From Octopus vulgaris (lineage: Eukaryota), in contig OX597814.1 in assembly GCA_951406725.2 (NCBI GenBank), forward strand, positions 102,300,001-102,364,000: a stretch of 64,000 nt of DNA, read 5' to 3'. This document shows, in pieces, positions 24,800 to 50,771 of this stretch (positions are counted from its first letter, which is position 1; the number at the start of each line of letters is the position of its first letter). The notes under the pieces were generated by a model, which searched no databases, was not told the DNA's origin, and saw only the letters and a program-made list of their open reading frames with translations. The translations under genes and the position numbers were made by a program.

Positions 24800-25008
24800 G
24801 TTTGAGATAATATAGAATTTGGCATTACCAGATTCTTTTACAGATTTTAAATGCAGGAATTCTTGTTTTGTTGCCTATACAATAATCTGGTAGAATAACT
24901 ACAATATTGGATCAAACAATACTATCATTATGAAATATACATTGTATACAGTTACACATTTTATTTTTTACATAATTACATATTACAAAAAGCTTGATTA
25001 AATATACA
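24800..25008 (+). repeat. ~210-bp direct repeat, copy 2
   Basis: Matches 22139-22348. Confidence 0.9.
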
Positions 25009-28000
25009 TATTTGAAATTACTTGATTCTTGAGAAAGTTTAATGACATTTGTGTTTGCATCGAGTTATTCTGGTCTAGAGTTTATGGGTGTAATATTAAT
25101 GATCACCACCACGACGGAGGGGCGATATTTCGTTATCTTGGATGTATTTTAAACCTCAGACTTGTATGGTACCTTGGGAAAATGTCTTCGATTATAACAT
25201 CCGGTTGACTCTTACCATGTGAGCGAAATTGTGTAAGACTGACTTAACGGGAGCCTGGTAGAAACCCATCGCTCGGTTTAACGTCATCACTGCATTGTCC
25301 TTGGGTTGCCATTTATGGAGTCCACTGATGCAAGCATTAAGTTAGATATCTATATCTAATTGAATTAACCTCACACTATTTGTTGTGGTTTCTTCCCCCT
25401 CCTTACCACCACCACCACCACTCAGTCTCATAGTTCTCTCCCATAAAGGTTAGAGGCTGCTCTTTAAATAATCCGTGATAAACCGAATACCAGCCAAAGA
25501 CGCGCATTTGGAAGAGCTTAAATATTCATAAACACTGCGCAGCTTGCAATCACCGAACATATTTGTGTTCTCAGACATGGCTGTGGTGGTTAAGAAGTTT
25601 ACTTTGTAACTGTATAGTTTCTGATTCGATTCCACTGCGCGATACCATGCATAAGTAGCCCTGTCTTCCACCGGAGCATCAAGTCGGCTGCTTTTGAGTA
25701 GTGGATTAATCCGTCAGCTAGTTTAACACCATCACGTAAAAAACGGATGGTTTTTAACGTGATGTATCTCGTTAAAAATCGATGGTTTTTAACATGGTGT
25801 ATCTTGTTAAAAGAGATACATCGAGTATCCCTTTTACGTTATGTATGTATCTCTATTGTAAGCATTACAGGCCAGGCCTCCGAACTGACATCCTTCTACT
25901 CGTCTCGGAGGTCCTTAAGACGATTTTCTTTATAGTTCTTGAAGATATATTTCTGCTACATGATTTACTTAAAAAAAAAGGGAAGTTTCTAATCAATCAA
26001 ACATGTTGAAAACTAATTAATTTTTAAGATTAAAATTTGTTATACTCTAAAGCAGGAGTCATTCCTTACTATCGCTTCCAAGGCATACGCAAGCACGCTT
26101 GGCGCGTCTTTTGCTTGTGTGACGGGAGTCAGTGTACTGTTTACAAAAAAAATTAGGTCAGTAGGTGATGCTAACTGAAACGGTGCTTATGATTGGCAGT
26201 CGTTAACAAGGAAGGCAGTAATGCTTTCTACCAGGATCATATGGATGTACGGAAATGAGATGAACTCTCAAACGTAAAAACAAAACAAAAAAAAAAACTG
26301 TTTCTTACGTTCTACTTACAAAACGAAATGAAAATATAAAGGGAAAAAAACCCAAAAAAACACGAGAAGATATAAATTTCTTCGGAGAAAAATGTCTGTT
26401 ATGATTTCTAAAATGTAGCTTTCAACAGCGTATTGTAATGTTCTTCAAATTAAATCGTTTTCAAAGAAAAACAAATTTTAGATCGATTTTTGTTTTGTAA
26501 GGCATCAAAGATAATTTTTTTTTTTAGGAGTAAAAGTGAAAATATCTATTTCCCTAAAGGTTACTAACTATAAGTGATGGCCTTTTCTCCATCAGATTTG
26601 TATAAATTACTCCCCAGTGTCTTTGCTCTAATTTCTCAAAAATATATATCGTGACAGGTGTTGTATAATAAAATGTTTCCATTTCCCGGTGGACACTTTA
26701 AATGTGTCACTGAACATTATTGTAGAAAAAAAAAAGAAGCATGAATGTTAACTTAAACCTTTTTCTCCTCGATCTATTAATCGAGGAGAAATTTGTGCCA
26801 ATTTAAAGAATTGGAATGTGAAATATCGATTTTCATATTTCAGGTGAATTTCTTCAGGCAGTTTGTCTTAACGAATTTGACTTTGTATCACTTTTTGATA
26901 TTGATGTTAATGTTGTTGAGCTTCTGATTTGATTGAAAAATAATTATTGATTTATTTAGTTCGAGATCACAAAATAGGGAAGAATATATATATATATATA
27001 TTCAACGGAATCGATTTTCAGAATGTTATCAATACTTATTTTATTGGCCCGAAGGGGTGAAAATCAAAATTGACTCCGACGAAATTTGAACAGAGAAAAT
27101 TAAAGGCGTGCAAACTAAATAATGCTAAATCGTTATCCACTCTGTTGCAAGCACCTATATTTGAGGTCTCCGATTTGAGGATACGTTTCTTCCTTCCAGT
27201 CTTGAAAACTTAATAGTTAGGAACACTGTCTTTCTTTTCGTGACTAAATTGCAAAAACAAAAGAAAGAAAAAAAAAGTGAATACATGTGTGGTCCATTCT
27301 AGAACTCTACCTACCCCTGCGGCTTCCTATTTCTCGTATTTATTAAATAAGATTGTGCGTGAGGATTCTTCATTTTCTTCTATAAGATGTATAGCCTTCT
27401 AATTTCATTCCTTCGACTTGTGCTTACTGCTACTGCTGCAACACAAACAAACTCTGGCATGATTTCTCTTCCATCTCTTTTTTATTCTCTTTCTCTCTCA
27501 CACACGACTGATTTCAGACTGTTTCTGTTGACAAATCATAACAAACATCATCTTCCTTCACCCTCTATTCCATTCATTTTAAATCTTGTTTTATGGCTAT
27601 ATAACAGCAGCAGCCGAATCTGACACAAACGTCATTTTTTCATTATGTGAATAATTATGGTTTTGATTAATATTAATTCTTTTTGTTCTTTAATTAATGG
27701 TACACACACTAACTTATCTTTATTTAATAAATCTATGAGTACAAATCATGTTTTATTCATGTGCAAAATACTGAATCTGTTCTAAAAAATACAAAAATAA
27801 ATATAACCATTGTTATGCGATAGCCTTTGGCTAAGCTTTTATCAGATACATCTTGATATTGGTTTTCTGGTTTTGTTAACTGACTTGCATTTCTGACAAG
27901 AATTTAGACACTTATGGTCTGAAAACAGTTTTGAAATATGAGCATCTGTAAAGGTCTTTCATCTTGTATGCTGCTGGCATGAGCCAGGAGGAACTTTATC

Positions 28001-29016
28001 AATCTGCTCTTTGAAACTGGAACTGATTAACAAAACAACAAAACAGTTATGAACAAATAATATAAAAGAATGAAAATGCTAAAAGAAAAGTTAAAGTGTG
28101 TGGTATGCATCTCTTAGTAATTCCAGCCAGAATTCTACAACTGATTCAGTTATTATCTGGCTTCAGTCTAAGGAAGCCTATACAAGATCAGTTTCTCTGC
28201 TAGAAATAATGGCTAAGTTTCCCCTCAAGTTACAACCTGCCTTTTTAAAAACTTAATCCTTCTTTTACAATACCTGAGTGAAGAATTGGATGTGACAGTC
28301 CCAGCTGAATGACTTTAGTCATAATTATGTTCAGCTAAGACTAACGTGGATTAAACAAAAACAACCCTGGTTTCACTTAAAATATTAAAATGTCAAAAAT
28401 AAGAAATCACCAAGGAGACCTTTGGCATCCATCTTAACGATTTTTTCTTCTTTTTTTTTTTTTGTGGCAGTCTAATATTGAAAAGAAGGGCAGTGCTCAT
28501 GACTCTCTTTTAAGAACTTCTGAGGCTGGAGGAACAAAGAATAACACTTATCCTTAAACCAGAGACCTTACACAGATGCATGCAACAGAATGGGCTTTGC
28601 TAAAGGTACTCAAGTGCCAAGTGGTTGTGTTACACTGGATAACAAATTTAGTTGATTATCAAAGAACTCAAAAAACAAAGACCCTGAACAAATTCTGTAA
28701 AGCATCTCATTTAAAGTTTTAACAATTCTCTTAATCCACTGCCCTGGTCTGTTACTTCATTTAACCATCCTGACTCGGTTAAACTGTCATTTTCAAAGAA
28801 AAACGAAAATGATGGAATTACAATGAAGTAAGAGGAAACTCAGTTACATTATTACTTGTGTCATTCCCTAGTGGGGAGATGATCATTTTTATTATATTTT
28901 AGATGAGAAATTTGAATTTGAAATTAAGGAATTAGGAGGAAAAAGACGCATAGTATATACATCATTCTTTGTTTTGTTATGAAGTCCTTATATTTATTTT
29001 TGCCAACAACTTTTAA

Positions 29017-29233
29017 CCTTTTAGCATTTAAACTGGCCATACCAGCCCAAAATATTCTACCTGTTTTATGTTCAAACTGACCATATCCAGCCTTTCATAC
29101 CTACCCTACTATGTCGTTCTAAAAATAATCACATCATCAAAATCTTGAAGGTACAAGATAATAGATGATTCATTCAAAACAATTTGAATAAATAAGCATT
29201 ACATTTAACAGACTTATCTGAATTTCTAAAGGG
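29017..29233. mobile_element. piggyBac-like MITE
   Basis: TTAA|ccttttagcatt...aatttctaaaggg|TTAA. Confidence 0.75.
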
Positions 29234-30219
29234 TTAAATACTACAGGTTTGGTTAGGCCTCTATTTTTATCTTGAGTTCCAAAATGAAATGTGAAAAAGT
29301 ACTAGAAAAAGTGGCAATCGAAATGAGGCTGTAACAATCAGTTTAAAATTTGAATGTCTGCTATATGCCGCTGTATAATTTACAATTGTTTTCCTGGTAC
29401 AAAACTATAAGTACGCTGAAATTTTTAATGCATGAAAACCAGAAACTATTAAAATAATTTTACCATGTATTTCATATCTGTCTTGGACATTTTAAAGATG
29501 TGGGGCCTCTTTTAAAAGAGTATATTACATTGCTTTCCCATGTGGTTTGTACAGTATTTAGCCTCACAATCTGCTCAGCATAAGGAGAACAAGTTGGGTT
29601 GATGTGATAAACAGAGTAGATGTTTAATGTATCTGTCTGATTGTTTATAATGTTTCAATTTGATCCTTGCATTAGCCTCCAGATGTGAAACATGGTTATA
29701 AGAAAAGAAATACCTAAGTACAATGCTTAGGCACAAGTATAGCTTTTGAGGCACAGGCATGGCTGTATAGTTAAGACGCTTGCTTTGCAACCACATTGTT
29801 TAAGGTTCAATCCCACTGTGTGACTCCTATAACCCTGGGCTGATCAATGCCTTGTGACTGAATTTGGTACTACCTTGAAGTTTTTAGTCAACCAAACTAT
29901 GCCCAGTGTTTATTTTAGATATGGTACTTATTCTAATGGTCTCTTTTTATTGAATTACTAAGTTACAGGAATTTAAACAAATGAACACTGATTGTCAAAC
30001 TGTGAGAGATAAACACACACACACACACACACGATGATTTCCATCTCCCAAATTTACTTACAAAGTATTGACTGACCCAGGGCTATAGCAGGAGACACTT
30101 GTTCAAAGTGCTTCACAGTGTGATGGAACTCAAGACCAAATGATTCCAAAACAAACTTTTTAACCATACAATTATGCCTGTGCCTTGTAAATTCAGGGTG
30201 CTAACATTTATCTTTATCT

Positions 30220-30572
30220 TTTACTGGTTCCTGTCATTAGACAGCAGCCATGCTGGGGCTCCGCTTTGAAGAACTTTCAGTTTGATGAATGGATCCCAGT
30301 ACTTCTGGTACTTGTTCTGTCGGTCTCTTTTTGCCAAACTGCTAAGTCACAGGTTGTCAAGCAGTTGGAAGTGGAGACAATCACAGACACAAAGACACAC
30401 ACAAATATTCGACTAGCTTTTTTCAGTTCCATCTACCAAATCTATTCACATGGCTTTGGTCAGCCCAAGGCTATAGTAGAAGATACTTGCCCAAGGTGCT
30501 ATGCAGTGGGACTGAACCCAGAACCATGTGGCTGGAAAGCAAGCTTCTTACCACACAGCCATGCCTGCACCT
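30220..30572 (-). mobile_element. SINE family B, near full length
   Basis: Reverse complement of 45612-45971 with CpG decay. Confidence 0.8.
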
Positions 30573-31389
30573 ATGGTTTCACATTCGCTCATATTTGTTA
30601 TACATGATTCTAGTATGTAGTATTTGGTTATCTTAATATAGCTTGTTAGTTGGTTAGCCACTTGATAATGAGAATAGGATATCGTAGGCTGATGATATAT
30701 GTGTTAACCTTTCACTATATGTCTCAAGCTATCTTTGGTATTTCTAATCTGTTGCTGCTTGTCTGCTACTACTTGGATTCAACATTATCTAAAACGTAAT
30801 TGTGTGTCCATGTGGGTTTCCACATGCTAATGCCACATGTTAAAATGATTTCATTTTCAGATGTTAACCCATACATGCTATTCCTCTAGATTATACTGCA
30901 TATATCTATGAGTGTGTATTCATCATCATCAGCAGCAACATCAGCATAACCACCACCACGACTACTATCATAGTGTTAATGTCCACTTTTCCATGCTTGC
31001 ATGGGTCGGATGGAGTTTATTGAGGCAGGTTTTCTATGGCTAGATGTCTTTTCCTGTTACCAACTCCCATCTGTTTCTATGCAGGTTAGTATTCCCCAAT
31101 GGCCAGACATGTTTTGTTGAGAGATTCGAGATGAATGACACCACTTGTATGACAGTGACACTCATTTACAACTATCAATGCAATGCCAAGACATAGAGAC
31201 ACAAACCTCACACACATACTCACATACAGACACATGCACACATATGTATACACATATACAACACGTTTCTTTCAGTATCCATCTTCCAAATCTCAGGACT
31301 ACAGCAGAAGATACTTACAATGGGGGACTGAAGGCAAAACCATGTGGTTGGGAAGCAACCCTCTTAACCACATACCTCCTTCCATGTGA

Positions 31390-31425
<36 letters not shown>

Positions 31426-31620
31426 TTAATATCCGTTTTCCACGTGGGCACGGGTTGGACTGTTTGACAAGAGCTGATCAGCTGAAGGGCTGTTCAGGCT
31501 CCCTGTCTGTTCTGGCATGGTTTCTATGGCTGGATACCCTTCCTAATGCCAACCACTTTACAGAGTGTACGGGGTGCTTTTACACGGCACCAGCATGGGT
31601 GCTTTTTACGTGGCACTAGC
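31390..31620 (-). mobile_element. SINE family D 3' part with (GAT)n tail
   Basis: ggataccctt cctaatgccaaccac motif shared with 35232-35545 and 40070-40345. Confidence 0.75.
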
Positions 31621-31953
31621 ACTTACAAGCCTGCAAGATTAGGGATGCTCAACTGGAGAGGGCTGCAAGGGATGAGCCTATATGCAAGGGCAACCACGCT
31701 TTTACTTTGCTTGACATGACTTTGCAAGCACATCAAACTGCCAGGAGTGTTAGTCCCCTGTCATCCCCTCTAATTATAATGCAAATAGCATTTTGTTTGT
31801 GTGTATGCATGTGCATAGGTTTAATATATAATTAAATCCATGAATTTAGTAACATTGTTCTATATATATAACACTGTATCACACAGTTTAATGTGTATAG
31901 TTTAATGTTTGTGTGTGTGAATCACCTTGTTCACTCATACACATGCAAATATG

Positions 31954-32029
<76 letters not shown>

Positions 32030-32749
32030 TATGTATGTAGGTATTCATACTCTGTGACCAATCTGTTTTACCTGGAATTTTAGTTTATATGGATTGCTTT
32101 CTTCTCATAAGCCAAGCCATCTTCAAAAGTACTGAGTGTCTGTAAATTACCTTTTCAATTTTAAAAATTCAGAAAAAATTTAAAATAAGGGTAACTCAGA
32201 AGAGTTTATTGGCAAACATAGGCAAACAAATAAAATTTTATTAGTAATTTCTTTTACTTACTCTGTGTGTGTGTGTGTGTGTGTCCCCTTTATCATCATC
32301 ATCATTTTAGCATGTTTCTCTTCGTTAGTGGCAGACACTGGATTTTGTGTTTGCTGATAGTGTTGCTCCTATTGAAATTAAAATAATAATTTAAGCCAGA
32401 CTTCACTCCTTAAACAATTCCCTTTGAGAAATTAAATTCATTGAAATTTGTTGTATTTTTAATTATACATTTGAAAGTTTGTCTAAAATCCATTTAAAAA
32501 AAAAAAAAAAAAAAAAAATTTGTCTTACTTAAATTCTCGTGAGAAAAATCTTCAATCTAATTAATATGCTGATGAAGCCTTTTCTTTAAGAATGGAAATG
32601 TTTCCAAGTGGAAAGGATAGTTTTCATTTCACATGTGATGATTGTAGACCTGTCTTTCTTGATGTCAGAGCTAATAAATCAAATAACACCAGGTACTACA
32701 GTTTGAACATAAACATGCCACTGAATCAACACATTCAGAGTCAAAGAGA

Positions 32750-32751
32750 AC

Positions 32752-32816
<65 letters not shown>
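32750..32816. repeat. (GA)n microsatellite
   Basis: Directly visible. Confidence 0.95.
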
Positions 32817-32820
<4 letters not shown>

Positions 32821-33534
32821 GAGAGGGGGATAGGCTATAAACTCTAGACAATAATTGTTTAAACAGATGGATTACTACATCAGCCAAACATTTCCAAACA
32901 GATGTATTTTACTCCTTTGAAGAAATTAATCTTTCCATGTTAATTTGCTTTTTGTTTTATTTATGTCATTTTTTATAATTTTTTTTCTTTATCTACATTA
33001 AGCTCCTACTATATTTGTAATGGGCTAATAAACCAACAATGTATGACCTGCAAGAAATAGCAGTTAAATCTCCCAGTTTTTCTTAAATTATATTTTTTTG
33101 AGTTTCTTTTTTCTTTATGTTCATTATGCTCTTATTTCATTTGTAACTACTAAACAAGAAAGCATCTTTACAATAGCATCTATATCTTACTTAAATCACC
33201 CCAAACTCTCTTAAAACAGGAAGAACACATTGGATAATGTAATCCAAGATTCATTATGTCTGAAAGTAAAATTGGCTAAGACCGGACAAGAGCAAGTTTA
33301 TTTACAGCTTACTCTTTGCTCAGACGTTGGAATAATATGATACTTGAATGATTTTCAAAGTGAGTTTACAAAAACCTGGGTTCTGTGAAAAAAATTTGTT
33401 GTTCTAGAAGAGGTCTTTTAATAAAACTGAATAAAAATTTGTATTATAAAAAATGGTAATTACCACTTTAAAGTAATGTTATTACATAAATAAGTCCTCT
33501 AACTGTGCATCATGAAACAAATACAGCCATGTAC

Positions 33535-33695
33535 AGATGTGGCTGTGTAGTTGAGAAGCTTGCTTCCCAATCATGTGAACTTACGTTCAATCCCACTGCA
33601 TGGCATCTTGAGCAAGTGTCTTCTACTATAGTCATGGGTTGACCAAAGCTTTGTGACTGAATTTGATAGATGGAAACTGAAGGAAACCCATCATT

Positions 33696-33730
<35 letters not shown>

Positions 33731-33955
33731 CCTTGTGATGACATCATATAATGGTTGTAAATGAGTATCACTGTTATACAAGCAATGTAGCTCGTTTCCA
33801 GTCTTCTGAGGAAAATATGTCTGGCCATGAGAAATACTACCTTGCTTGGAAACAGGTGAAGGTTGGCAACAAGAAGGGCATCCAGCTGTAAAAAATCTGC
33901 TTCAGTAAATTTTGTCTAACCTATACAAGCATAGGAAAGTAAACATTAAATGATG
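33535..33955 (+). mobile_element. SINE with family-B head and family-D-type tail
   Basis: tggctgtgtagttgagaagcttgc head, (TG)n, then ggttggcaacaagaagggcatccagctgta tail. Confidence 0.7.
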
Positions 33956-34714
33956 ATATTGGGTTAAAAGCCACTTGGAAGGAAAAAAATGCAGAAAGCT
34001 ACTCATGGGACTTGAAACACATCTTTAACCTAAGGGTTTTTAACCCGTTAAATTTATAAAGTATTATTTATAGCGCTATTCAGTTTAAATGACTTGTTTA
34101 ATACTTCTCTCCTTGTATTTCAACATATCTATGTCAAAACATAAAGATATGGCTCCCTTCAAAGATCAAGCCCCATAAGGATTAATGATATGGCTAGGGG
34201 CCTACTTCTACTCCTTTGAAAAGCAGGATGCCATAGTCTCTGCAATGCACCCCCACTCTCCTTGTCTTGCAATCCCTGTTGTTTCCCACCCCATACTCTG
34301 CCAATTTCTCTGTAAGCACTGTGAGTATCCAGTGAGTTTTGTTATTTACATTTTGTTTCATGTGTAGTCTTTACAATCAGCATGTTGGTTTTGTTTGAAA
34401 TGTAAATATGTATTTGCCATTTAGTATAACTACAACAAAGAAGAACCACATAAATGTGAAGAGAAGGTACTTTCTCTTTGTATCCCAATATACAGGGAGA
34501 AAGAGAATGTTACGAAACTGTGGTGATAATTTTTGAACATTATATTTGCGGGCTTGCATGGCTGTATGGTTAAGAAGCTTGCTTCCCAACCATGTATTTG
34601 GGGGTTCAGTCCCATTGCATGGCTTCTTCAGCAAGTGTCTTCTCATTTAGCATTGGGATGACCAAAGCCTTGTGAGTGAATTTGGTTGGTGGAAACTGAA
34701 AGAAGCCCATTGTG

Positions 34715-34769
<55 letters not shown>

Positions 34770-34792
34770 AGAGAGAGAGAGAGGGGGAGAGG

Positions 34793-35140
34793 GAGAATTC
34801 ACAAAAGACGAAGACAGGTGGTGTAAACAACAAACAGATATATTAGTTTAACTCTCGGGAAGTGAAAGTCTTTAATGTTTCAAGCCTATGCTCTTCCACA
34901 GAAAGGAACACAGAAAGAAAAGTTCGTTGGGTGATGAGAGGAGACAGGATCAACTGATGCGACCATGTGAGCATGTAATATATAGGGAGAATTCACAAAA
35001 ACACAAAAGATGAAGACAGGTGGTGTAGACAACAAACAGATGTATTAGTTTAACGCTCTCAAGAAGTGAAGAAGTTTTTAACATTTTGAGCCTACGCTCT
35101 TCCACAGAAAGAAAAGTTCATTGGGTGATGAGAGGAGAAT
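34793..35140 (-). mobile_element. Tandem pair of Penelope pLTR fragments
   Basis: Two ~150-190-bp units gagaattcacaaaa..gaagacaggtggtgta..gctcttccacagaaag..gggtgatgagaggag. Confidence 0.75.
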
Positions 35141-35231
35141 ATATATACATATTAAATATTACTGCTCAAAAAAATTTATATAGGGAATGCTTTTTGGAGG
35201 GGACCCTGTCTTTCACGAATAACATGTCTGG

Positions 35232-35545
35232 TCATCATCATCATCATCATCATCATCGTTTAACGTCCGTTTTCCGCGCTAGCACGGGTTGGACGGTTTC
35301 GACTGGGGTCTGGGGAGCCAGGGGCTGCCCCAGGCTCCAGTCTGGTCTGGCAGTGTTTCTACAGCTGGATGCCCTTCCTAACGCCAACCACTCCGCGAGT
35401 GTAGTGGGTGCTTTTTACGTGCCACCTGCACAGGTGCCAGAGGGGTCTGGCATCGGCCACGGTCAGTTGGTGCTTTTTATGTGCCACCTGCACAGAAGCC
35501 AGTCGGGGCGGCGCTGGCATCGGCCACGTTCGGATGGTGCTTTTT
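35232..35545 (-). mobile_element. SINE family D (young, CpG-rich)
   Basis: (cat)n cgtttaacgtccg..ggatgcccttcctaacgccaaccac, inverted relative to 40070-40345. Confidence 0.82.
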
Positions 35546-36250
35546 TTAAGTGGGGGGAGGGTGCAGAAATATAGGGGAGCACCAGTGGAGAGGGGTGTTC
35601 GGAGAAACGATGACAGGTTCTAGACAAGTAGAACGTAGGATATCACGAGAGGGGTAATGCATGGTGAAATAGCGTATTGAAGAGGGGGGTTCGAAGAGTA
35701 GACACCTATAATGGTGGTGGGAGAAGCGACATCCGGTATAGATGGAGCAAAAATATAGAGATATCCAGTATTGGTGGTGGTGGTGGTGGGGGTGGGCAAG
35801 GGTGGTGGTGGTGGGGGTGGGGTGGGCAAGGGCGGGTGCACTGGGAATATGCGAAGGTTGAACTTGACGGGCTGGCTTAAAAATGCTCTTAGCAATGGAA
35901 GGGGGGAAAGGAAGAGGGGGGGAGGGCATACAACGTAAAAGAGGGAGAGAGAGAGAGAGAGAAGGGAATAGTGGAACCCCACGAAAATCGGCCGCCATTG
36001 AAAAAATCCTGTATGGAGAAACTCAAATATCTATTCTGTATTTAGCGAGACACGAGGCCGGAAAACCGATGGTCAACAATAACTAATAAATTATACAGAA
36101 TATGCAATACGAGGCGAAATAATAATACTAATAAACAAATTGTCGACTGGGGGTCAAAGAGATAATACTAATACTACTAATAATAATAATAAACAGCTTA
36201 ACCACTAGAGATCAGACAAATTTGCATGAGAATATTACTGGTACAGATTA

Positions 36251-36287
<37 letters not shown>

Positions 36288-36289
36288 TA

Positions 36290-36425
36290 CGACGGGCTTC
36301 TTTCAGTTTCCGTCTACCAAATCCACTCACAAGGCTTTGGTCGGCCCGAGGCTATAGTACAAGACACTTGCCCAAGGTGCCACGCAGTGGGACTGAACCC
36401 GGAACCATGTGGTTTGTAAGCAGAA
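36290..36425 (-). mobile_element. SINE family B 5' half
   Basis: High similarity to the reverse complement of 45640-45780. Confidence 0.85.
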
Positions 36426-37579
36426 AGAAATATTAATGAGGATTGACAACACTTGCCCAAGGTCCCACACAGTGGCCCTGACCCATGAAATCATGTGGTT
36501 GCAAAGCAAGCTTCTTAAATACACAGCTACACTTGCTTTATTTATCAACTTTATTTTATCAATTCTGGAAGAATGAAAGGCAAAGTTAACTTAGATGAGA
36601 TTTGAAACCAGAATGTAACCTGTAACAAATACCACAAGGTATTTCATTTTGTCCATCACTGTAATGAGTTTGCCAATCCAAGTGCAACACATTTTGCAAG
36701 GAAAGACCTAGCAGATTTATAATAAATTCACAATATATTACTGGTACTTACTTTGCTGATCCCAGCAATGATAGCAAATAAAGTGGGACTTGAAATTAAA
36801 ATACAGAAAGACATGACTAACTAATATAAGACACTTAGTCTGACATTCCACTGATTCCTCCATCCATTGTCTTTCAACTGGAATAGCAACAACAATCATA
36901 ATACTGACAGCAGTGGCAGTTTTGGTGGTGGTTGTGGTGTTAATCACTTCAGTTGAAAGATTTTCCTGCACTCCTTTACTATAAAGCAAAATAGGCACCA
37001 CCAAGTAAGTGTTTATTATTTCAGCCCAAGGTCACCAAAAGAAGTAGGTCAACAACTAAGGAGTGCCACATTGTTATCCTTCAGTTTTATTTATTATTTA
37101 TTCAACAGGATATTACCAGACTTTAGAGCTAGGGAGAGGTAGGAAGGCGGAAGGATTTGTGAACTGTTCTGTTATATTTTTTCCTTCTTTTCTTTCAGTC
37201 TTTATTTTCTTGTTTGAAATTTGTTTTTCATTTTTTGTTCTTTTATGTAAGGCAAAATATAACATATTTCCCATGACAAGGAAGTGCTACACAAAAAAGG
37301 AAAGCACTAAATATAGAATTTATAAGCCAAGATTAGATGGTCTTCATGGGATACAGGCAAATATAAAAAAAACGATGTTCCTAAGGTTACCTGTCTTTCA
37401 CATTAATTTTAAAAATATGAATAATTGATAATGACACCAATAAGAAAATTATTTCATGTGTGCTGAACCGAGATCTTTGAGCTAAATAGGTAATATATAT
37501 TTCATTTGTAATATTGACTACACCTGTAAAATTTTAAAGGTTAAAAGCTTCTCATGTACTGAACTGGATAGATTTTTAT

Positions 37580-37650
37580 GGTTGTTTAACTACATTTAAC
37601 TGATATCCTCTCAGCAGGTGAGTAAAGTCAGCTCCAGTTGTTAGGTAAGA
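37580..37650 (+). other. Candidate recursive splice site with 27-nt RS-exon (37618-37644)
   Basis: tttaactgatatcctctcagCAG|GTGAGT aaagtcagctccagttgttag|GTAAGA. Confidence 0.5.
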
Positions 37651-37716
37651 TTGACTCTATGTTGAAGAAACAATAAATATATTGATAGTATTTGTAGCTA
37701 CAAGTCTTGCTTTTAA

Positions 37717-37939
37717 CTCTTTTGATACCATCGTGCCTGGGAGTAGAAGAGTTCTATGATGCAAACTTCTTGTTTTAAAATGATTTAAAATTAAATCTTT
37801 CCATCAAATTCTGTCAATTTATGTTCCAAATATCTGCTTAAAAATTACAGTTATTTTACTAAATTCTTCATTCTTTTCAAAATTAATTGGAACAAAGGCA
37901 GTGTATTTGTTCCAATACACTACCTTTGTAGCAAAAGGG
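37717..37939. mobile_element. piggyBac-like MITE
   Basis: TTAA|ctcttttgatac...gtagcaaaaggg|TTAA. Related inverted copy at ~61510-61731. Confidence 0.72.
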
Positions 37940-38483
37940 TTAAGAGGATAAAAAGGTATAATTCATGAACTCAGCTCCATTGTATTACTGGTACTTATGG
38001 AACCAGTAAAGATGAAAAAAATAGGCAGTTTTGAGAATATCAGATATAATAATAGTTAAGCCCTTCTATCAATGACTTTTCTTCACTGTTCTAGAGTCTG
38101 AGCTGTCATTTCTGCTTCTCTCCAATTAGATCTTTATCACCTGCCTGCATTACCTATAATATCCTTCATGTTTCATCCCCGAGGGAAGGCTTTCTTCTCT
38201 CAGGTCTCATTGGTTTTGAATTGTCATTGATGCTTCTGTAAGTTTGCATTTTTCTAGCTAGGGGTGTTGGCCCTCTACAAACCCATTTTTACCTCTGGGA
38301 AGTAGTGGTCCATATTAGTCTAGCCTCTTTACTTTGAACCTGTCTAGCATAGTAGGCCCTACTAAGAGTTTGTGTTCCACTGGTATAGCTTTCAGAGCAG
38401 GGCCATCTCAACAGCATTATAGGCCTGCAGATAAATCACTGCACTGAGGCCTATATTATTTACTGACTGTAAGCCACAGTATA

Positions 38484-39030
38484 CAGTCATGGCCAAAATT
38501 GGAATTTTTACATTAAATGCCCAGTTATATTTAATTTGCAATATATTATTACATGGCCAAAAGCTTGGAGCATAGGTATGGAAATTAGAATTTTAATATT
38601 AAATGCCCCATGGCTCAGTGGTTAGAGTGTCAGGCTCATAATCATGAGGTAGTGAGTTTGATTTCCAGACCAGGCTGTGTGTTGTGTTCTTGAGCAAGAC
38701 ACTTTATTTCATGTTGCTCCAGTCTATTCATCTGCAGAAATAAATTGCGTCATCACTGGTGCCAAGCTGTATTGGCCTTTGTCTTTCCCTTATATAACAT
38801 CAGTAGCAAGGGGAGGGAAGGCTGTATGCATGGGCAACTGCTGGTCTTCCATAAACAACTTTGCCAGGAATTATGCCTTGGAGGTGAACTTTCTAGGTGC
38901 AATCCCATGGTCATACATGACCTAAGGGAATCTTTACACTATATACATTGTATATATTTGAATTGAATTGTACTTGGGCATAACAATTTTAATTTTTTAA
39001 AGAAATGTTCCAAACCTTTGGCCATGACTG
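38484..39030. mobile_element. Tc1-type MITE interrupted by SINE family C (38605-38935)
   Basis: TA|cagtcatggccaaa...tttggccatgactg|TA. Confidence 0.8.
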
Positions 39031-40069
39031 TACATGGATCAGAACTGGGTTCCTTAGGCCCAGTGTGACCATACCTTAACACAGCAATGATTCAGTGTCT
39101 TTGAGGTACATAAGCCACCTTACAGTAACATGTACTGAACCTTGTGCTGGTTGTGCCTGAATTAAGAAAAGAAAAATATTAAGAAGGCAGCCTTGCAGTG
39201 GTAATACTTTTTCCTGACAATTTAATCATGAGAAATATTTACATAAAAAGCATACAGATATTTCAATTCAAATTCAGCACTAATTCTGTGGATTTAGAAT
39301 CCTATATTGCTGTTTTTGTTTTGTTTTTTTGTGAAAACATAGAATTCATTCTTTGTGATTATTATTCTGCATTGTTGCCATCATCATCATTGTTGCTGTT
39401 CATGTGATAAAATAAAAACAGTGACAAACGAATCCAAGGAGAAAGAATTCAATTCTCTATAGACTGTTTCTTCAGCTTATATCCACATCACTGTATTAGT
39501 ATGTTTTAGTTCTAATACTAACACGCATGCATACACACAAACACATGCACATGCACATGCTCCACACACGTGGACACACATATACACACACACCACAAAC
39601 ACAAATGCGCACACTTGCATACAGAGAAGTGCATACACATGCACTTAAATACATATGCATACATGAAAGAGAAACACACACACACACACAGACATGCATA
39701 CATGAATACACATGTAAAGAGAATAACAAGATAAATGTAAATAATCATGTGTATGTGCAAGAAAATTGTCATCATCAGTGTCAATAGACAACCGTAAACA
39801 TAGTGTGTGTGTGTGTGTGGTGAGAGAGAGTTTATGAGATTTATTCAAGAGCACAAGGCAATGGTTGAAGTAAGAATTGAAAATGATAAACTCTTTAATC
39901 TGTAAAACAATTATCTTGACTTCACATTTATTGTGTTCATGCTTGTCTAGATACATGTACACACTCACACCCAATCACAAACACACACACACACATTGAG
40001 TTGCAGGTATGACTGAGTGATTAAGAAGTTTGTTTTATAATCATGGGGTCTTGGTTTCAATTACATTGA

Positions 40070-40345
40070 CTAGCGTCCATGTCGGTGACACGTAAAAGCA
40101 CCAACCGATTGTGGCCGTCTGCCAGTGTCCCCTGGCCCCTGTGCCGGTGGCATGTAAAAACCACCCACTACACTCATGGAGTGGTTGGCGTTAGGAAGGG
40201 CATCCAGCTGTAGAAACACTGCCAGATCAGACTGGAGTCTGGTGCAGCCTCCAGGCTTCCCAGATCCTGGTAGAACCGTCCAACCCATACTAGCATGGAA
40301 AACGGACGTTAAACGATGATGGTGATGATGATGATGATGGTGATG
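40070..40345 (+). mobile_element. SINE family D 3' part
   Basis: gtggttggcgttaggaagggcatccagctgtagaaac..ggacgttaaacgatgat(gat)n. Confidence 0.82.
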
Positions 40346-40669
40346 TATGGCATGTTGGGTAAGTATCTTTACAGTAACCTTGAGTTTACATGAAGCCTTG
40401 TGAGGAAAACTGAGTAGACAGAAACCCAGCAAATTTATTGTACGCATAATTTGTAAGTCCAACATTGTCACACATACATTGTATCATGCTGATTCAGCTT
40501 GGGACATATGTTAAGAGTACACTTGTCTGTGGAGTCCTCAGCCACTTAGATGTTAATTTAACAAGATGAACATTTAGCCCAGTGAAAAACTGAGTGCTGT
40601 TTGTGAAAATCAATGAAGCATCAACTAAATGTTTATATTTCTGTATGGGAGATGTTTGGTGTACATAGA

Positions 40670-40900
40670 AGGCGGCGAGCTGGCAGAAACGTTAGCACGC
40701 CGGGCGAAATGCTTAGCAGTATTTCGTCTGCTGCTACATTCTGAGTTCAAATTCTGCCGAGGTCAACTTTGCCTTTCATCCTTTCGGGGTCGATTAAGTA
40801 AGTACCAAATTACGCACTGGGGTCGATATAATTGACTTAATCTGTTTGTCTGTCCTTGTTTGTTCCCTCTGTTTGTAGCCCCTTGTGGGCAGTAAGGAAA
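40670..40900 (+). mobile_element. SINE family A, full length
   Basis: High similarity to 2681-2909. Confidence 0.88.
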
Positions 40901-42052
40901 CGATAGAAGGACTATGCTAATGGAAATACTTCATGTTAGTTTTATCAACCATACTTTTCCATATTGGCTTAGGGCATATTGGAAGAAGGTGTTAATTTTG
41001 GAATTTTCCTTCTCCTAAGTTGATTGCCTTCACCACAGCTAAAAGCTCAAACTACCCTTACAAAAATCTATTTAACCCATAGATGGGACCCTAACTGGTA
41101 CTACTGCTTCGGGTCAGAACAGACCTGGGAATGAGTAATAGTAATTAAGGAATGACTCCACTCTCTCAAAAACTCCATAATTCCCAAACTGGACTCTCAC
41201 CACCAGATACAGTTTAATGTCATATCCGAAACAAATTACCACCAATCACTTCTTGGCCACATTAAGCAAATGGTTTGTGGTATCTGCAAAATCTGTTTGG
41301 AAGGCATGATTAATGGAAAGAGAAACAGCGGTCAGCATCCTAAGAGATAGACATATAACTAACATCACAGCATGGGTAGTTCTTGACATAGTTTCCTTGA
41401 ATGCTCTTGCCAAAATTTGAATACTATATAGGCAATTGTCTCATGTTGGCGCGCATTCTGCCACTGGTGGAGAAAGTGGGAAATGAGAAGTACTATCCCT
41501 CATATGATACCAAAAGTAGAAATACTACCAGACAGTAAATAACTCCATCTTTGTTCTTTCATCAAAGCTCTTTTTATCTGTTACTCACTGTGATACTGAA
41601 TCACAGTTAGACCCCACATTCATAAAGATGTTCTGTCTTTTCTTAATTTTTCTCTTTACTATTCATCTGTCTGTCTGCCTATCTATCTGTCTGTCACCTC
41701 TATCTGTTTACATACATATATATCATTACATCTCTCTCTCTCTCTGTCTCACACACACATACGCATGCGTGCATGCACATGCATATACAGACACACAAAC
41801 ATGCTATCTCTCTCATAAACATAACAAGCTCTATAGTGTTACTGTTATCAGAAACAAAATAGTTACTGTAATACATTTCCTATATACTTGGTATTTGAGG
41901 AAATACTTTCAATTTCTGTTGAAATCATTGGACATTCCAACAGCTTTTCTTTCCTCGTTTCTTTACACCCACATACATGTGTGTGTGTGTGTGTGTTATA
42001 TGTATGTGTTCATGTATGTATGTCAGTTTGTGTATGTGTATGTATAAGCATG

Positions 42053-42395
42053 TTTTACTTGTTTCAGTCATTGAACTGCTGCCACGCTGGAGCACTACTT
42101 TGTAAAGTTTAATCAAATAAATTAACTCCAGTACTTATATTTAAGTCTGCTATTTATTCTATCAGTCTCTTTTGCTGAACTACTAAGTTACTGGGATATA
42201 AATAAACCAACACTGGTTGTCAAGCAGTGGTGAGGAGACAAACACATACACACACGAAAAGCTTCCACATAGTTTTCATCTCTACCAAATTCACAAGGCA
42301 TTGGTTAGGGGCTATAGTAGAAGACAGTTGCTCAAAGTGCTGTGCAGTGAAATTGAACCTGTAAACATGTTATGAAGGAAACTTCTTAACCACAT
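42053..42395 (-). mobile_element. SINE family B, degraded
   Basis: ttttacttgtttcagtca..gctggagcac..ggttgtcaagcagtgg..ggctatagtagaagac. Confidence 0.75.
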
Positions 42396-42523
42396 GTTTT
42401 TTCAACTAGTGTTTAGCCATGCTTACACACTGGTTCAACATCTGGTTTATAGCTTTGATATGGTCCTGCCTTTTTGTGTTTTAATCAATCATGTCAACTT
42501 GGCATAAACTTTTTAAACTTGTA

Positions 42524-42905
42524 CAGTGATACCTTGCAGTATGAGTTTAATTTGATCCATGACCGAGCTTGTCTTGTGATTTACTCGTTTTACAAATGAA
42601 TTTTCCCCATTGAAATTAACTAAAATATAATTAATCCATTCCGGCCCTCAAAAACCACTCAAAAATAATTTTTTATGGGTTTTAAAACAGAAATGGTGTA
42701 GCTACAAGTAAAATGACAATTATATAAAAGAGAATGCAAAGGAAATATGTAAACTGGTTTTATTAACTGAATTACCTTAAAGATGGATAATTTATGTGCT
42801 CATACTGCAGATTTCCGCTCCTACTTCAAGACAAAAATTTGCACAAGTCTCGGCTCGTACAGCAAATTACTCGTACAATGGTGCACTCATACTTCAAGGT
42901 TCTTC
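42524..42905. mobile_element. Tigger-like MITE, degraded
   Basis: ta|cagtgataccttgcagtatgagt ... actcatacttcaaggtt. Confidence 0.5.
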
Positions 42906-43365
42906 TTTTAATATTTTATATTTTATTGAATTGCCTTTTGCACAGATAAACATAAACCCTATACACAGACTTTGACCCATACAATGCTCTTGTGTATATA
43001 TTTATCATCAATCATCATCATTATTTTACACTTGCTTTCCATGCTGGTATGAGTCGGATGGGACATGCTGGTCCAAATCATTTCCTACTGAGAGTCACTA
43101 CTTCCTTAACTGGTTTGCATATGCATTATTTGGCTTGGTTTCTATGGTTGAATGTCCTTCCTTTTGTGGATTTAGCTGAAAGGAACTGAAAGAATGATGT
43201 TGTTGTTGGTGGTGGTGGTGGTGACAATTCCTAGACTGATTAGTACAGTGTTCTTGAGCAAAACACTTTATCTCAAATTGTTCTGCAATTCAACGCCTGT
43301 GCTGAAACTTGACCCTCACTAAAAAGCTTGAAAAACAAATAGACGTCTGCTATACAACAATGTCT

Positions 43366-43610
43366 GGAGGCATATGGCTTAATGGCTAGGGTGTTGGACT
43401 TATGCTCGTAAGTCTTTGGTTTCGATTCCTGGACTGGGCAATGCATTGTATTCATGAGCAAAACACCTCATTTTATGTTGCTCCATTCCACTCAGCTGGC
43501 AAAAATGAGTAATCCTGTGATAGACTGTCATCCTATCCATGTGGAGAATATATATGCCATGAAACCAAGAAACTGGCCCTTATGAGTTTGTATGACTCAA
43601 AAAGAAGGTA
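43366..43610 (+). mobile_element. SINE family C
   Basis: Homologous to 23028-23270 with CpG>TpG/CpA changes. Confidence 0.8.
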
Positions 43611-44240
43611 ACTTTACCTTTTTTTTCTTTTTACACAGAATGTTAAGAATGGCTCTGAATGTTACTTGGAGAGCTCATTTAACCAGGACAGTGGAATGGC
43701 AAATGTTGATGAACTATGAACCTGCATGGGAGACCATGGTGGATGGTGTACTCATGTGAAATCATTGAAGCATCAGAGAGGACGGCAAAACTAACACATG
43801 CTTTGTTGATTTGATGGAGGGAATGAACTAATGTATAGCACATACATTTTGATTACTATAAACAAATCAATTACGCAGTTCATTCAGCAAAAACTGAATA
43901 CTAATATATTGTCTTCAACTGGAGATTCTGTCGTGTGTGCGTGTGTGTGTAAATAATTGAATAAGTTGAAATCAACAAGAAAGAGTACAGAGGAATATTT
44001 ATTTGTAATTACTACAATTGTTTCCATGCAGTGTAGTTCTCCAGTTTCTCAGGTATTTGGTTATGTAACCATTTCCCTGTATTATGAGATCTTGTGTTTC
44101 ATCAGGTGATATATAAATATTGTTTCTGAGCTCTGTAAATGGGTGAAATCTGAAGGTGTATGAGCTTTATACTGTACTCTATTACATTCTTAACAGAATA
44201 TAACCTAATTATATAATATATATATACACATATATATACA

Positions 44241-46136
44241 CCATAACACCCATATAATTTACACACTTTTTTTGCAAAAATAAACTTTAGGAGGTGCGTA
44301 AATTACATGAGTAGATCATTTCCAGAATTTTTTTAGAAATTTTTTTTTTGTTGAAAAATGATGTTCGGGAAGTTGACTCATTTCATGTCAGAATAGGTTT
44401 TTTACAGAAAAAATGTAATGAAGTTGACTTCTATTTAAGCTGGACAGTATAATGCTTACTTTTTCTGTATAAATTTACTAAAACTATTAAATGGTGAACT
44501 ATTTTTAAAGTTTGACATTCATGCTTGTAATCATGGTCCAGGCCATATTTTGCATAGCTTGGAGTTTCTACCTATTGCAATGGAGCATAGCAATTTCCTT
44601 AAATAGATCAGTTTTTCTCCCCTTTGGGCCTCTAACTTGTGTTTGCACCAGGAAGCTATTTGCTCACTTTCTCCATGTTACAACACAATGAAATTCCTCA
44701 CTGCTGATATCATCACTATCAGCTCTTACTGCATCTAATGTCAACAATGACAACATCTTAATTCATCCTTGTGCATGTGAACTCACTAAGTGAATATGAC
44801 TTCCTACAGAAATCTTCATTTACTTTATACAATGTTTAATGTCATTTCACATTCATGTTAAATTATGCAACAATCTTATGTTCTCTTCATAGAACACTTG
44901 TAATGTATGTATTAACAGTTCTTTTGGTATAGTAGATTTTTGCTTTTCTTGTTTATGTCTCCTCACAGATGTGTATATTCTAACAAGTTGCTTCTTAAAT
45001 TTTACACCTCTCTTGTTCAATAAACACTGGGTTAAATTTGCAAAGCTGTTTATTTTCTCCTTTCAATTTTTAATATCTATTTTAGAGGGTTACCAAACTA
45101 TCAGTTTGGTCTCCTGGCTAAAATGGTAATGACAAATTTTTAAGTTTGCTTGACATTTTATAAGCATGAAAGGGATTAAAATTTTAATACTCCATATCAA
45201 AGGTTCCGACAAGAATAAACAGAAAATCAGAGCTTAAGACAAGAAGACACTTTTGACCAATCATAATTCTGTTTACATTATCAATTTGGTCAGTCATCTT
45301 CCTCTGTCGGTTGAGTAAAGTGTTATCTAGGCTGATGCCTATTGGTAATTAAATTTATTTTGCAACACTTGTGTATATTTATCAGCTTTGTTTTTGTTGA
45401 TAAGAATTATCAACAACTTTTCCTGTGATTGTGATTTGAGAAGATATACAGAAGTATGCTAAAGATTGGACATAATCTCTTGTGGGCAAGAAATGTAAAA
45501 TAAAGTTTATTAGAAACAACACTAACACTTCGTATTTTAACAGCTTTCAATGTGATACCTGTTAAACAGAAATTATTTTTATTTAATGAAAATTTAATAA
45601 AATCTAATCATAGGCGCAGGAGTGGCTGTGTGGTAAGTAGCTTGCTAACCAACCACACAGTTGCGGGTTCAGTCCCACTGCGTGGCATCTTGGGCAAGTG
45701 TCTTCTGCTATAGCCCCGGGCCGACCAATGCCTTGTGAGTGGATTTGGTAGACGGAAACTGAAAGAAGCCTGTCGTATATATGTATATGTGTGTGTGTTT
45801 GTGTGTCTGTGTTTGTCCCCCTAGCATTGCTTGACAACCGATGCTGGTGTGTTTACGTCCCCGTCACTTAGCGGTTCGGCAAAAAGAGACCGATAGAATA
45901 AGTACTAAAAGGTGGTGCTCCAGCATGGCCGCAGTCAGATGACTGAAACAAGTAAAAGAGTAAAAGAGTATAAGTAAGGGAAATTATGCTAAATACAACT
46001 GAATTGAAAACCTTCTTCCCTTGGCCATATTGGCAATTCTGAAAACTTTTGGGTGCAAATTTTACATGAATAGAAGCTTATTTTTAACAAATTTTATCCT
46101 GAAAATCACCTGCATAAATTACATGGGTTTTTACAG
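44241..46136. mobile_element. Non-autonomous Tc1/pogo-superfamily element (~1.9 kb) containing a SINE B insertion
   Basis: Imperfect TIRs ccataacacccatataatttacaca / tgcataaattacatgggtttttacag|ta, with subterminal ggtgc.taaattacatga repeats. Confidence 0.6.
45612..45971 (+). mobile_element. tRNA-derived SINE family B, full-length young copy
   Basis: ggcgcaggagtggctgtgtggtaag..gggttcagtccc..cttgggcaagtgtctt..(TG)n..gactgaaacaa(gtaaaaga)n tail. Confidence 0.9.
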
Positions 46137-48152
46137 TATTTATGCACACACACACACACACATTAAAAGAAGAGGGCACAGTAAAGTGTGACATGCAACC
46201 AAGATGAGGCTCAGCTTTGGGTTCCATACTCCACTCCAGCATTGAGCATAGTACACTAAACTCAGGCTAGTTTAGAGTATGGTATACAAGCCAAATAACT
46301 GAAAAAAATAAACAGAAAATGGGTGTGGTATTCAAAGCCATATACACATGCCAAAGGACATGCACACATGTCAAAAGACATACTCACATGTCAAAGGACA
46401 TACACACATCAGCAAAATGCATGATTGCATAATGTTCTATTATGGCCATGTAATTATTTCAGTATTTTGCTGCCACACATGTATGTCCTACAAAGCTTTG
46501 AATACCACACATGCTTTCTGCTTATTATGTGTGTGTGTGTGTGTGTGTATTTTGTGTGTTTCCTTATTTCAACATCATGTGTGAGTTGTTAGTGTCACAA
46601 TCATAAACGGTGTCACTCATTTCTAGCTTTCTATGAAGATGTGTCCAGACAAGAGAAAATATCAGCTAATTTAGAAAGAGATAAGAGCTGGTGACAGGGA
46701 GGGGTTTCCATCTGTAAAAAAATAATGGCACAACAAATTTTGTTTGACCCATGCAAAAGTATGGAAAAATAAACATTCAAACAATGATGATGATATATGT
46801 GTGTGTATAAATCTGATGATTTTTCTCTGCTCTACACACAGTTTCTCACTATCTGTGACCCTCCAGGTGACAAAAAGAATTAGATATGTAACTAGGTAAC
46901 TAGCCGTGTGTTGTACATGAAATAAATGATAAAGCAGTTAAAAAGGTTAAAGCAATGCAAGAGAAAGAAGATAATGAGTGAAAGAGAGAGAGAGTAAGGA
47001 AGAAGGAGGTGGATCACAGTTTGTGGCCAGTCTAACTTCTCTATGCTATTCCAAAAGTGCTGTATTTGTAACCATCAAAAATTCTATGGTATGTAACTAT
47101 TTTATTTATAAAAACCACAAACTACATACACTGAATTATGTTTGAATTTATTGTAAACAAAATGACCTGAAATTGAAATAATCATGTGTTGGGGTGGTCT
47201 TGGAATATACGTTTGTATACATTTGTATAATATGCAAACACATACCACACATTAAAGAAGCACTTTATGTCTCTACTAAAGTTATCAGCTCTCTTAATGT
47301 CTATGAATACAGCCATAATCCTGTGTGATGATACTTGTACACAAGTTTAAATATTACTTTCTTTATTTTTCTTATCTCAGGACTTACTGTTCTCTTAGAT
47401 AATTTATCTAAAGTGTCAGTGTTAGAATCTGCAGAATATATTATATATCTTTCCACTCCATATGAAACAGAGACTACACCATACAAATTTCATAATTGTC
47501 CAAATGGAAACCAAACTTTTAAAATAGCCAATCAGCTGATGCAGTGTACTCATACCTGTAGCCCTGTGCATGGTTGCCCTTGACTTGTCTAATAACTGAC
47601 ACGTCATGCTACATCAGTTTGTGTTTGATTGACACATACCTGAGTGAACATATGTTTAGGGTATTTGGTGATTTGTTGCAAGTTGAACAATGAAAGATTT
47701 GGGAGACTAACATGTTCGTGTGAAATTCTGCTTCAAGTTAGGGAAAAAGTTCTTACAAAGACTTTTCTAATGCTATGATATGAATATCAGAGAATTGTCA
47801 TAGTTGTATGCAATGTCATGAGTAGTATTGATATTTGAAATCAGAAAGAACATCCATGAAAGACAATCTCAAACCTGGATGACCTTCCATGACAACAGAA
47901 AATAACCACATGATGTGATTTATGTGATACATGAAAATTGTTATCTAACTCTGCCCATGAAATTTCCAAAGAATTAAGTATCTGTTAAAAAAAATTCCTT
48001 CAGAAAAGACCCCAGTACAGGACTAGTTACTTTATTTTTGACACCAGGGCTTGAACTCAGATAACTGTAGCAATTTTTGTAAGGTAATTTAACTAATAAC
48101 TGCCAGTTCACTTACCTACAGTTTGTGGCTGTATATAAAAGAAAATTATAAT

Positions 48153-48487
48153 CTCTCTCTCTCTATCCGCTCAGTCAAAGTCGACTCTCGGTCACTTGTT
48201 GGATCAGTGTCCTCCAGTCAGTTCTATCCTGGGCCGCTTCTTTCAGATTGGCTATGTCCATTCCAGTACCACTCTTGATGGTGTCAAGCCAGCGGGTTCT
48301 TGGTCGGCCTCTTCCTCTCTTGCCACTGACCATTCCGAGCATGATATCCTTCTCCAGGGATTTTCTCCGCATAATATGACCGAAATATGCCAATCTATGC
48401 TTGGTGATCCTAGCTTCTAGCGACATTTTTGGCCCTATCTGCTTAAGAACTTCTCCATTGGTGAGCCTCGCTGTCCATGGAATCCGC
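48153..48487 (-). mobile_element. 5'-truncated RTE-BovB-like LINE with 11-bp TSD
   Basis: RIPWTARLTN..YFGHIMRR.SLEKDIMLGMVSGKRGRGRPRTRWLD, (GA)n tail, TSD aaaattataat at 48142-48152 and 48488-48498. Confidence 0.93.
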
Positions 48488-48804
48488 AAAATTATAATAG
48501 TGAAATAATTTATATGCTTATTATTGTTGTTTGTTGTTTAGACCAAGGATGATCCTTATCAAGCCAACATATCGTCAAGATTATTTTAGTCTTGAGCATC
48601 TCAATTTCTTTTTCAGATATACTATATCTAAGATTATATGTTCCTTCTTTTTTTAAGGTGGCAAAGCATGATTTGAAGGAGATTTGGCTGGTTGGGCAAA
48701 TGCATAGAGGTTGGTTTGGGATACTTTGATTTGGTTTAACTAAAGAAGAGATAGTAACTCATATGGTGGTGGTGGTGGTGGTGGTGTCCTGCAGAAGTGT
48801 CATA

Positions 48805-49990
48805 TCTACTACATATGTGGCAAATCGGTGTGTTTGTGTTTGTTTGTGGTGTTGTTAGCTAACTCCTCCTACACCATTTTATTGATTTTGGTGAAACTTG
48901 ACACGTGAGTAGAACTCATGTCTGGAAATCTTGTGACAAACATAGATTGTTAAAAAAATTGATAATATGGCCCCTGGAAGGGACCTTCATAACTACTTCA
49001 TATAACAAATGTTTTTAACACCCAAGGGAAATAACCCATAGCACCTGTACAATATTTTTTAAACACCCAAGGGAAATAACCCATCTCACTTTTTGTGTTC
49101 GATTACTTTGAATATTGATTTTTTGTGTCCTATTTCTAATGTTTACAGACAATATCACTTTTATACTTTATTTGACACATAAGTAGAACTCATAGCTGGA
49201 AACCTTGTCACATAGTTAGATTGTTGAAAAAAAAAATCAATAATAGGGCCCTTCCAATGGATCCTTCTATCTACTACATATTACTAATATTTTATTTAAA
49301 CAACCCAAGGGAAATAACCTATACCACCTGCAGATTTTAGTGAAGCGATCAATATTTGATTCTCATGATCAGCCGACCTAATTCTGCATTTCGCTACTCA
49401 TGATTTTGAACTGCTAAACATTATTATTGCACTTCCTTAATTTGAATCTTAAACAGCAAAGACTTCATTCATACATTTCTATACATACATACTTTTTTGA
49501 TTGTCCATTACTCTGATAATTCTGCATTTTTACAGTTACACTTTTCCATGACAGCAGATAAATTTTTTATTCCACAACGTATTTGTAGTGGCTTCATGCA
49601 AGCATAGCATGGATTTGATCCTCGATTGCCAAATTTCACTTAACACTTCAACAGCACTTTTCTTAGGGTAAACAATAGTTTTTTTCTGTGAATGACAGCA
49701 GTTATACCTTTCCCAGATGCCTTTGCTAAGCAGGATAATGTCTTCACCTCTCGCCAACCTCCAACAACCTCTCTCACCAACCTCTGACAATCTTTCTCGC
49801 CAACCTCCGAAACCTCTCTCGCTAACCTCCAACAATCTCTCCCTCCTCCAGCTGACAGTTTTTGTACTTTTTCATGACAGAAAATGCACTTTTTGTGGCA
49901 GTTATAACAAAATTGCTTTCTTATATCAGATTAATAAGGCGTTTCAATAGAACATCTTCACTCCTGGGAATTACTGGGTACACCAGCTAG
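48805..49990 (+). mobile_element. Non-autonomous Helitron
   Basis: A|TCTACTACATAT...cctgggaattactgggtacaccagCTAG|T, with internal subrepeats (cccaagggaaataacc x3). Confidence 0.8.

Positions 49991-50632: not shown

Positions 50633-50668
<36 letters not shown>

Positions 50669-50704: not shown

Positions 50705-50771
<67 letters not shown>

Follow-up and report, generated by a model that had tools for sequence, protein, structure and literature searches.

The 64,000-nt stretch of Octopus vulgaris DNA analysed here (termed the window) contains, on its plus strand, the 3' end of a non-coding exon and the first part of the giant intron that follows it; within this intron lies an acceptor immediately followed by a donor (the 37,617 site), which is a candidate for recursive splicing. 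Table 1 lists these features together with three similar sites in the same intron. No coding exon was recognised within the window, whose long open reading frames are transposon pieces or microsatellite artefacts. Broken frames at 1352-2308, 13630-14674 and 51062-54348, inside or beside the intron, are presumably retrotransposon-like, the labels assigned to them by eye being reverse-transcriptase, zinc-knuckle and GIY-YIG-like pieces.

Table 1. Features of the window and of the remainder of the intron, in window coordinates (slashes mark splice junctions)
Feature	Position	Strand	Remarks
Upstream non-coding exon, 3' end	3965..3992	+	donor AAG/GTACGT at 3993; contig loose ends
5'-UTR intron, first part	3993..64000	+	whole intron 3,993-183,400, 179.4 kb
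Candidate site context	37580..37650 of the 64,000-nt window	+	Octopus vulgaris OX597814.1
Branch-point-like TTAAC, TTAAC, CTGAT	37586..37604	+	A at 37589, 37599, 37603; putative function
Tandem acceptor and short pyrimidine tract	37605..37617	+	CAG 37612-14, CAG 37615-17
Candidate ratchet-point donor GTGAGT	37618..37623	+	score 8.9 native, 7.9 regenerated; predicted use
Candidate cryptic RS-exon, 27 nt, ends TAG	37618..37644	+	without ATG; missing from mature contigs
Second donor TAG/GTAAGA	37645..37650	+	score 5.1
Sister site	57846..57928	+	TTTTTCAG/GTGAGT at 57859/60; 63-nt cryptic exon; second donor AAG/GTCAGC
Sister site	70,437, beyond window	+	62-nt cryptic exon
Sister site	118,759, beyond window	+	47-nt cryptic exon
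Exon at far side of intron	183,401-183,546	+	RNA contigs

The host gene and its 5'-UTR intron

The extent of the intron is given by contigs from four sequencing runs guessed to be RNA, of unspecified tissue; only contigs were used, and contigs lose rare forms. In contigs from three of these runs, which belong to three studies, the exon ending at 3,992 is joined directly, with no insert, to the exon beginning at 183,401: runs X1, X2 and X15 share one loose 5' end on the latter exon, and this end maps once and exactly to 3965-3990 (one match, none expected), having been found in none of 88 loci searched. Contigs of X2 and X15 continue into the last exon of the gene. Because these contigs bridge the two exons, the 37,617 site must be sense-oriented within a giant intron and be skipped in them; plus-strand transcription across a very long molluscan intron, which an earlier note on this DNA had proposed, is thereby borne out. 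Contigs reach up to 849 nt before the 3,992 junction, and additional upstream exons are possible; a CpG-rich stretch at 3440-3760, upstream of the mapped exon end, is a possible promoter.

Each of the two downstream ATGs has an in-frame stop codon directly before it, and no frame opened by an ATG was found to enter the intron from the upstream exon. Hence the intron lies within the 5' UTR, and the term 'poison', which the earlier note had attached to the 27-nt segment, is inapplicable: the segment precedes the start codon, and since no reading frame enters it, protein truncation is impossible. It resembles the poison exons described in PMC8605326 in being a short, normally skipped exon that contains stop codons, but differs from those acting through NMD in preceding the start codon, with no frame to carry into it. 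The stops do occur in each frame, as had been claimed; they also occur in 27% of random 27-mers of the form GTGAGT...AG and in 16 of 32 putative octopus cryptic exons, and carry no information on the segment.

A search of 864 kb surrounding the window for the host gene identified, as the next real plus-strand coding exon, the last exon of a gene, 395 codons long and situated at window coordinate 278,396. Octopus sinensis LOC115214979 is a match to the protein encoded there, which falls into a cluster with records from O. bimaculoides and O. vulgaris; its relatives comprise five hits, of which those carrying organism names are from cephalopods only, and no Pfam family was assigned to it (best E 0.44). 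The N-termini of its isoforms are encoded by exons at 149,738, 183,496 and 230,464 and by an 18-nt micro-exon at 268,294. The host gene encodes a coiled-coil protein, as yet uncharacterised, and combines a choice of three short N-termini and an 18-nt PKSQTL micro-exon with one large last exon; N-terminal variants also appear in Argonauta and squid-like records. At 149,587-149,794 a putative acceptor is followed after 13 nt by a donor, GG/GTAAGC, and after 208 nt by another; the long form encodes an MGQANT N-terminus, and this acceptor region may provide the intron with another intermediate point of splicing.

An FPGS-like gene was also considered as host and was rejected because its matched exons lie upstream, at least about 100 kb away, on the minus strand, and point away from the window (four FPGS/folC-like copies occur on C1, at 55.38-55.44, 102.18-102.20 and 190.48-190.50 Mb). 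A minus-strand exon at 447,126-447,289 is presumably kinesin-motor-like.

The motif at 37,617 and its possible uses

The elements reported earlier (CAGCAG, GTGAGT at 37618 and TAG/GTAAGA at 37645, with a spacing of 27 nt) are all present at those positions, and the DNA is unique as stated: among 40 scored genome matches to 37450-37800, the motif is covered by the self match only, the other 39 beginning at query position 257 or later (approximately 37706), although an absence of further matches need not mean rarity. Use of the distal AG of CAGCAG would make a zero-nt site, whereas use of the proximal AG would leave CAG behind. The branch-like motifs and pyrimidine tract are likewise present, the former within an AG-free stretch of 41 nt upstream of CAGCAG, but the tract is short and weak and the acceptor scores low (1.6 for the distal and 2.3 for the proximal AG, as against 5.4, 8.4 and 7.4 for three acceptors of the host gene scored with the same weight matrices, which were set by hand from metazoan frequencies rather than trained on octopus). 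With the same kind of hand-set matrix, the donor regenerated by splicing to the upstream exon, AAG/GTGAGT, outscores the second donor, 7.9 to 5.1.

What is lacking is the TT at positions -5/-6 that all but one of 197 ratchet points in the fly possess (bioRxiv 10.1101/006163), as do all three sister sites: the bases there are CA relative to the distal AG and TC relative to the proximal AG. For this reason the architecture, although it has the AG/GT and second-donor layout, is not the 'textbook' one that it had been called.

How often such a motif arises by chance was estimated from 60 Markov replicates at each of three orders. A 64-kb window should contain 0.6-1.15 pyrimidine-rich YAG/GTRAG and 0.03-0.05 pairs of AG/GTRAG within 60 nt, which puts such a pair in 3-5% of windows. 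The motif is uncommon locally, yet not rare over a 2.8-Gb genome, and at that frequency it is by itself weak evidence. One explanation is that it is a chance motif unused by the spliceosome, real ratchet points, if there are any, being the sister sites. Favouring this are the weak tract, the lack of TT and the selection of the site out of tens of thousands of windows, a double donor occurring in 3-5% of random ones. Against it, the motif lies on the correct strand and in the correct type of intron, its 41-nt AG-free zone contains branch-like motifs, and sites of its strength (second donor scoring at least 5) number zero both in 80 Markov sequences modelled on the unique part of the intron and elsewhere in the 864 kb. 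This explanation is given a low but appreciable probability.

Mature contigs have no 3-, 27- or 30-nt insert in three of three cases (the tissue being unspecified), which is also to be expected of an unused site. Unspliced contigs occur nearby, at 36707-37569 upstream and at 37874-38080 downstream; none from the four guessed-RNA runs lies over 37585-37694 (the shortest pieces being 36 nt, longer than the 27-nt exon), no junction or lariat across the site was found among the listed loose ends of those contigs, and no run recorded as RNA covers 36540-37705; this gap speaks neither for nor against the site. The saw-tooth of coverage that had been predicted, 'dropping at 37617', has the wrong sign: as described in PMC10156609, coverage declines toward a recursive site and rises beyond it. 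Depth is flat within each of the contigs obtained here. At 37039, three runs, which come from two organisms, yield contigs with G in place of A, due either to an allele or to A-to-I editing.

Another possibility is that GTGAGT and GTAAGA act in the conventional way, as alternative ends of a cryptic UTR exon of 419 or 446 nt starting from an acceptor at 37,199. This acceptor, located 419 nt upstream, is very strong (11.2); only 17 acceptors in the 179-kb intron score 8 or more, giving about a 5% chance of one within 600 nt, and the resulting exon would add 10 ATGs and could repress translation. Nevertheless, an X1 contig (37009-37569) and an X5 contig (37168-37319) run through 37,199 without splicing and align over their full length, the acceptor belongs to 80 nt of T-rich, low-complexity sequence, and an exon of this length would leave the branch-like motifs and the AG-free zone before 37,617 unexplained. 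Such an exon is judged improbable.

A further possibility is use of the proximal AG. The product would then be a micro-exon consisting of the 3 nt CAG, or else a minor cassette exon of the 5' UTR, 30 nt (or 27 nt) long and ending at TAG/GTAAGA. The proximal acceptor scores higher than the distal one, the native CAG/GTGAGT donor scores 8.9, and the MDLREM isoform sequence is common to at least four O. sinensis RefSeq accessions, suggesting varied 5' UTRs. The higher score of the proximal AG points against ratchet use, yet CAG is missing from all three contigs that join 3,992 to 183,401, although rare forms drop out of contigs. Neural micro-exons tend toward TGC beside the acceptor, and no TGC adjoins this one. 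Moreover, a branch A at 37,599 would be separated from the proximal AG by just 15 nt, a spacing that could favour the distal AG. An insert of this kind is accordingly judged improbable.

The reading favoured here, and considered marginally probable, is that the 37,617 site is a fly-type ratchet point within the 179-kb 5'-UTR intron that leaves nothing in the mRNA. The intron, its strand, the skipping in mature contigs and the three sister motifs are observed; the steps would be as follows. First, the acceptor would pair with the second donor, 27 nt farther on, the two defining a cryptic exon; the upstream exon, ending in AAG, would be spliced to GTGAGT at 37618 via the second AG of CAGCAG; and the regenerated AAG/GTGAGT would outcompete TAG/GTAAGA and then be spliced to the next site. 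Later stops would be at 57,860, 70,438 and 118,760, and finally at the exon beginning at 183,401, so that the intron would leave as pieces of 33.6, 20.2, 12.6, 48.3 and 64.6 kb. Were the 27 nt included now and then, the outcome would simply be a longer 5' UTR. Membership of the 37,617 site among ratchet points is not established: its position, layout and donor ranking agree with it, the bases at -5/-6 do not. The earlier interpretation of the site in terms of recursive splicing is, on this evidence, partly supported.

Ratchet-like motifs in the intron and the genome

On its sense strand the intron has four unique sites that pass acceptor, donor and second-donor thresholds, namely the 37,617 site and the sister sites at 57,859, 70,437 and 118,759, whereas none does so on the antisense strand of the intron or on either strand in the rest of the 864 kb. 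The Markov expectation for the intron is 0.125-0.15 sites; these thresholds were chosen after the data had been seen and admit 37,617, without which the probability of finding three or more is 5e-4. When the second-donor condition is dropped, the excess is modest (four sites against 0.8-1.1 expected, p 0.02, or 0.09 without 37,617). A raw strand bias of YAG/GTRAG (22 on the plus and 5 on the minus strand over 264 kb) was discarded; of the 22, 11 fall beyond the intron, and repeats account for several. The acceptor at 37,617 is the weakest of the four: those of two of the three sister sites are much stronger, and that at 57,859, where TT is present at -5/-6, scores 6.2. For testing, the sisters at 57,859 and 118,759 are preferable to 37,617.

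At the level of the whole genome, a strict ratchet-like motif, TTTYYYYYNCAG/GTRAGT, has 90 matches, as compared with 40 when the donor is broken, 45 when the acceptor is broken and 60 when both are broken (odds ratio for enrichment 3.0, p 6e-5); a tighter pattern has 11 matches against 2 for its reversed control. The strict matches also cluster on one strand: within 300 kb they form eight same-strand and two opposite-strand pairs, with 0.86 expected, while the control matches form 0, 1 and 2 pairs, with 0.17-0.38 expected. Three strict motifs on C23 at 40.05-40.35 Mb are an example of such a cluster.

Flanks were examined for 70 of the 90 strict matches and for 30 of the 40, 20 of the 45 and none of the 60 control matches. 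A second donor, GTRAG at +20 to +100, follows 12 of 30 strict matches in the first-look set and 15 of 40 in the held-out set, but only 6 of 50 controls (held-out p 0.005); farther out, the held-out count is down to 9 (at +200) and 5 (at +300) out of 40. TT occupies -5/-6 in 58 of the 70 strict matches versus 24 of the 50 controls (p 6e-5), and the two marks may tend to go together, a second GTRAG occurring in 25 of 58 matches with TT as against 2 of 12 without it (p 0.08), a point against 37,617. Putative octopus RS-exons measure 26-98 nt (n=32), and five of the 32 are no longer than 30 nt, so that a length of 27 nt is within range.

Two other sources of the excess were considered and rejected. 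A repeat family is disfavoured in that BLAST comparison among 30 loci matched the motif alone, and ordinary donors at exon ends are disfavoured in that the DNA upstream resembles intron ends, being more AT-rich, more T-rich and AG-free for longer than in controls. The enrichment, the one-strand clustering and the presence of both fly marks (TT and the second donor) together suggest, from motif statistics, that the octopus quite probably takes out its giant introns by recursive splicing of the fly type, with many silent ratchet points and cryptic exons of 26-100 nt. This claim for the class is stronger than that for 37,617 alone.

Relation to recursive splicing in flies and mammals

Recursive splicing has been described in Drosophila and in vertebrates, with differing output; the proposed model is one of cryptic exon definition followed by competition between donors (PMC8605326). 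Hundreds of silent recursive sites occur in flies, compared with about nine in mammals, which, besides these fully suppressed intronic sites, have many expressed RS-exons (same source). Fly recursive segments reach 63.6 kb, with a mean of 18 kb (bioRxiv 10.1101/006163), and the spacing in the octopus intron is similar to this. No report of recursive splicing in octopus or other molluscs was found in the literature searched, which included few subscription papers.

The octopus sites resemble Drosophila ratchet points in placing AG/GT within a very long intron and ahead of a short cryptic exon with a weaker downstream donor. They likewise resemble them in that there are several per intron (with a spacing of 12-65 kb in octopus) and nothing is kept in the mRNA (Duff et al., bioRxiv 10.1101/006163; Joseph et al., PMC8605326), and in that the class as a whole carries TT at -5/-6. 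The 37,617 site itself departs from the fly pattern in its CAGCAG, its weak tract, its lack of TT and a length of 27 nt rather than about 50 nt; furthermore, it is known from motif layout and intron contigs rather than from saw-tooth coverage, lariats or conservation.

With the mammalian RS-exons of long neural introns (Sibley 2015 and Blazquez 2018, as cited in PMC8605326 and PMC10156609), the octopus sites would share exon definition followed by donor competition. Octopus has long neuronal genes (PMC7222433). In contrast to mammals, the octopus pattern, to judge from motif counts, looks fly-like, with many silent sites.

If these sites are used, recursive splicing extends to a third animal lineage, the Lophotrochozoa, which would bear on whether bilaterians inherited this way of coping with giant introns from their common ancestor or invented it more than once, and on the reason for the sparing use of stepwise removal in mammals. 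The octopus genome, at 2.8 Gb, is twenty times that of the fly. By itself the 37,617 site, in the 5' UTR of an uncharacterised gene, matters little; the 90 strict sites and the 179-kb intron with its four sites constitute a ready test set for giant-intron genes. Some of the strict matches may be real exons that start with GT. At one of them (locus L180), GTGAGT comes right after the acceptor of a coding exon for collagen-like Gly-X-Y repeats, a candidate expressed RS-exon.
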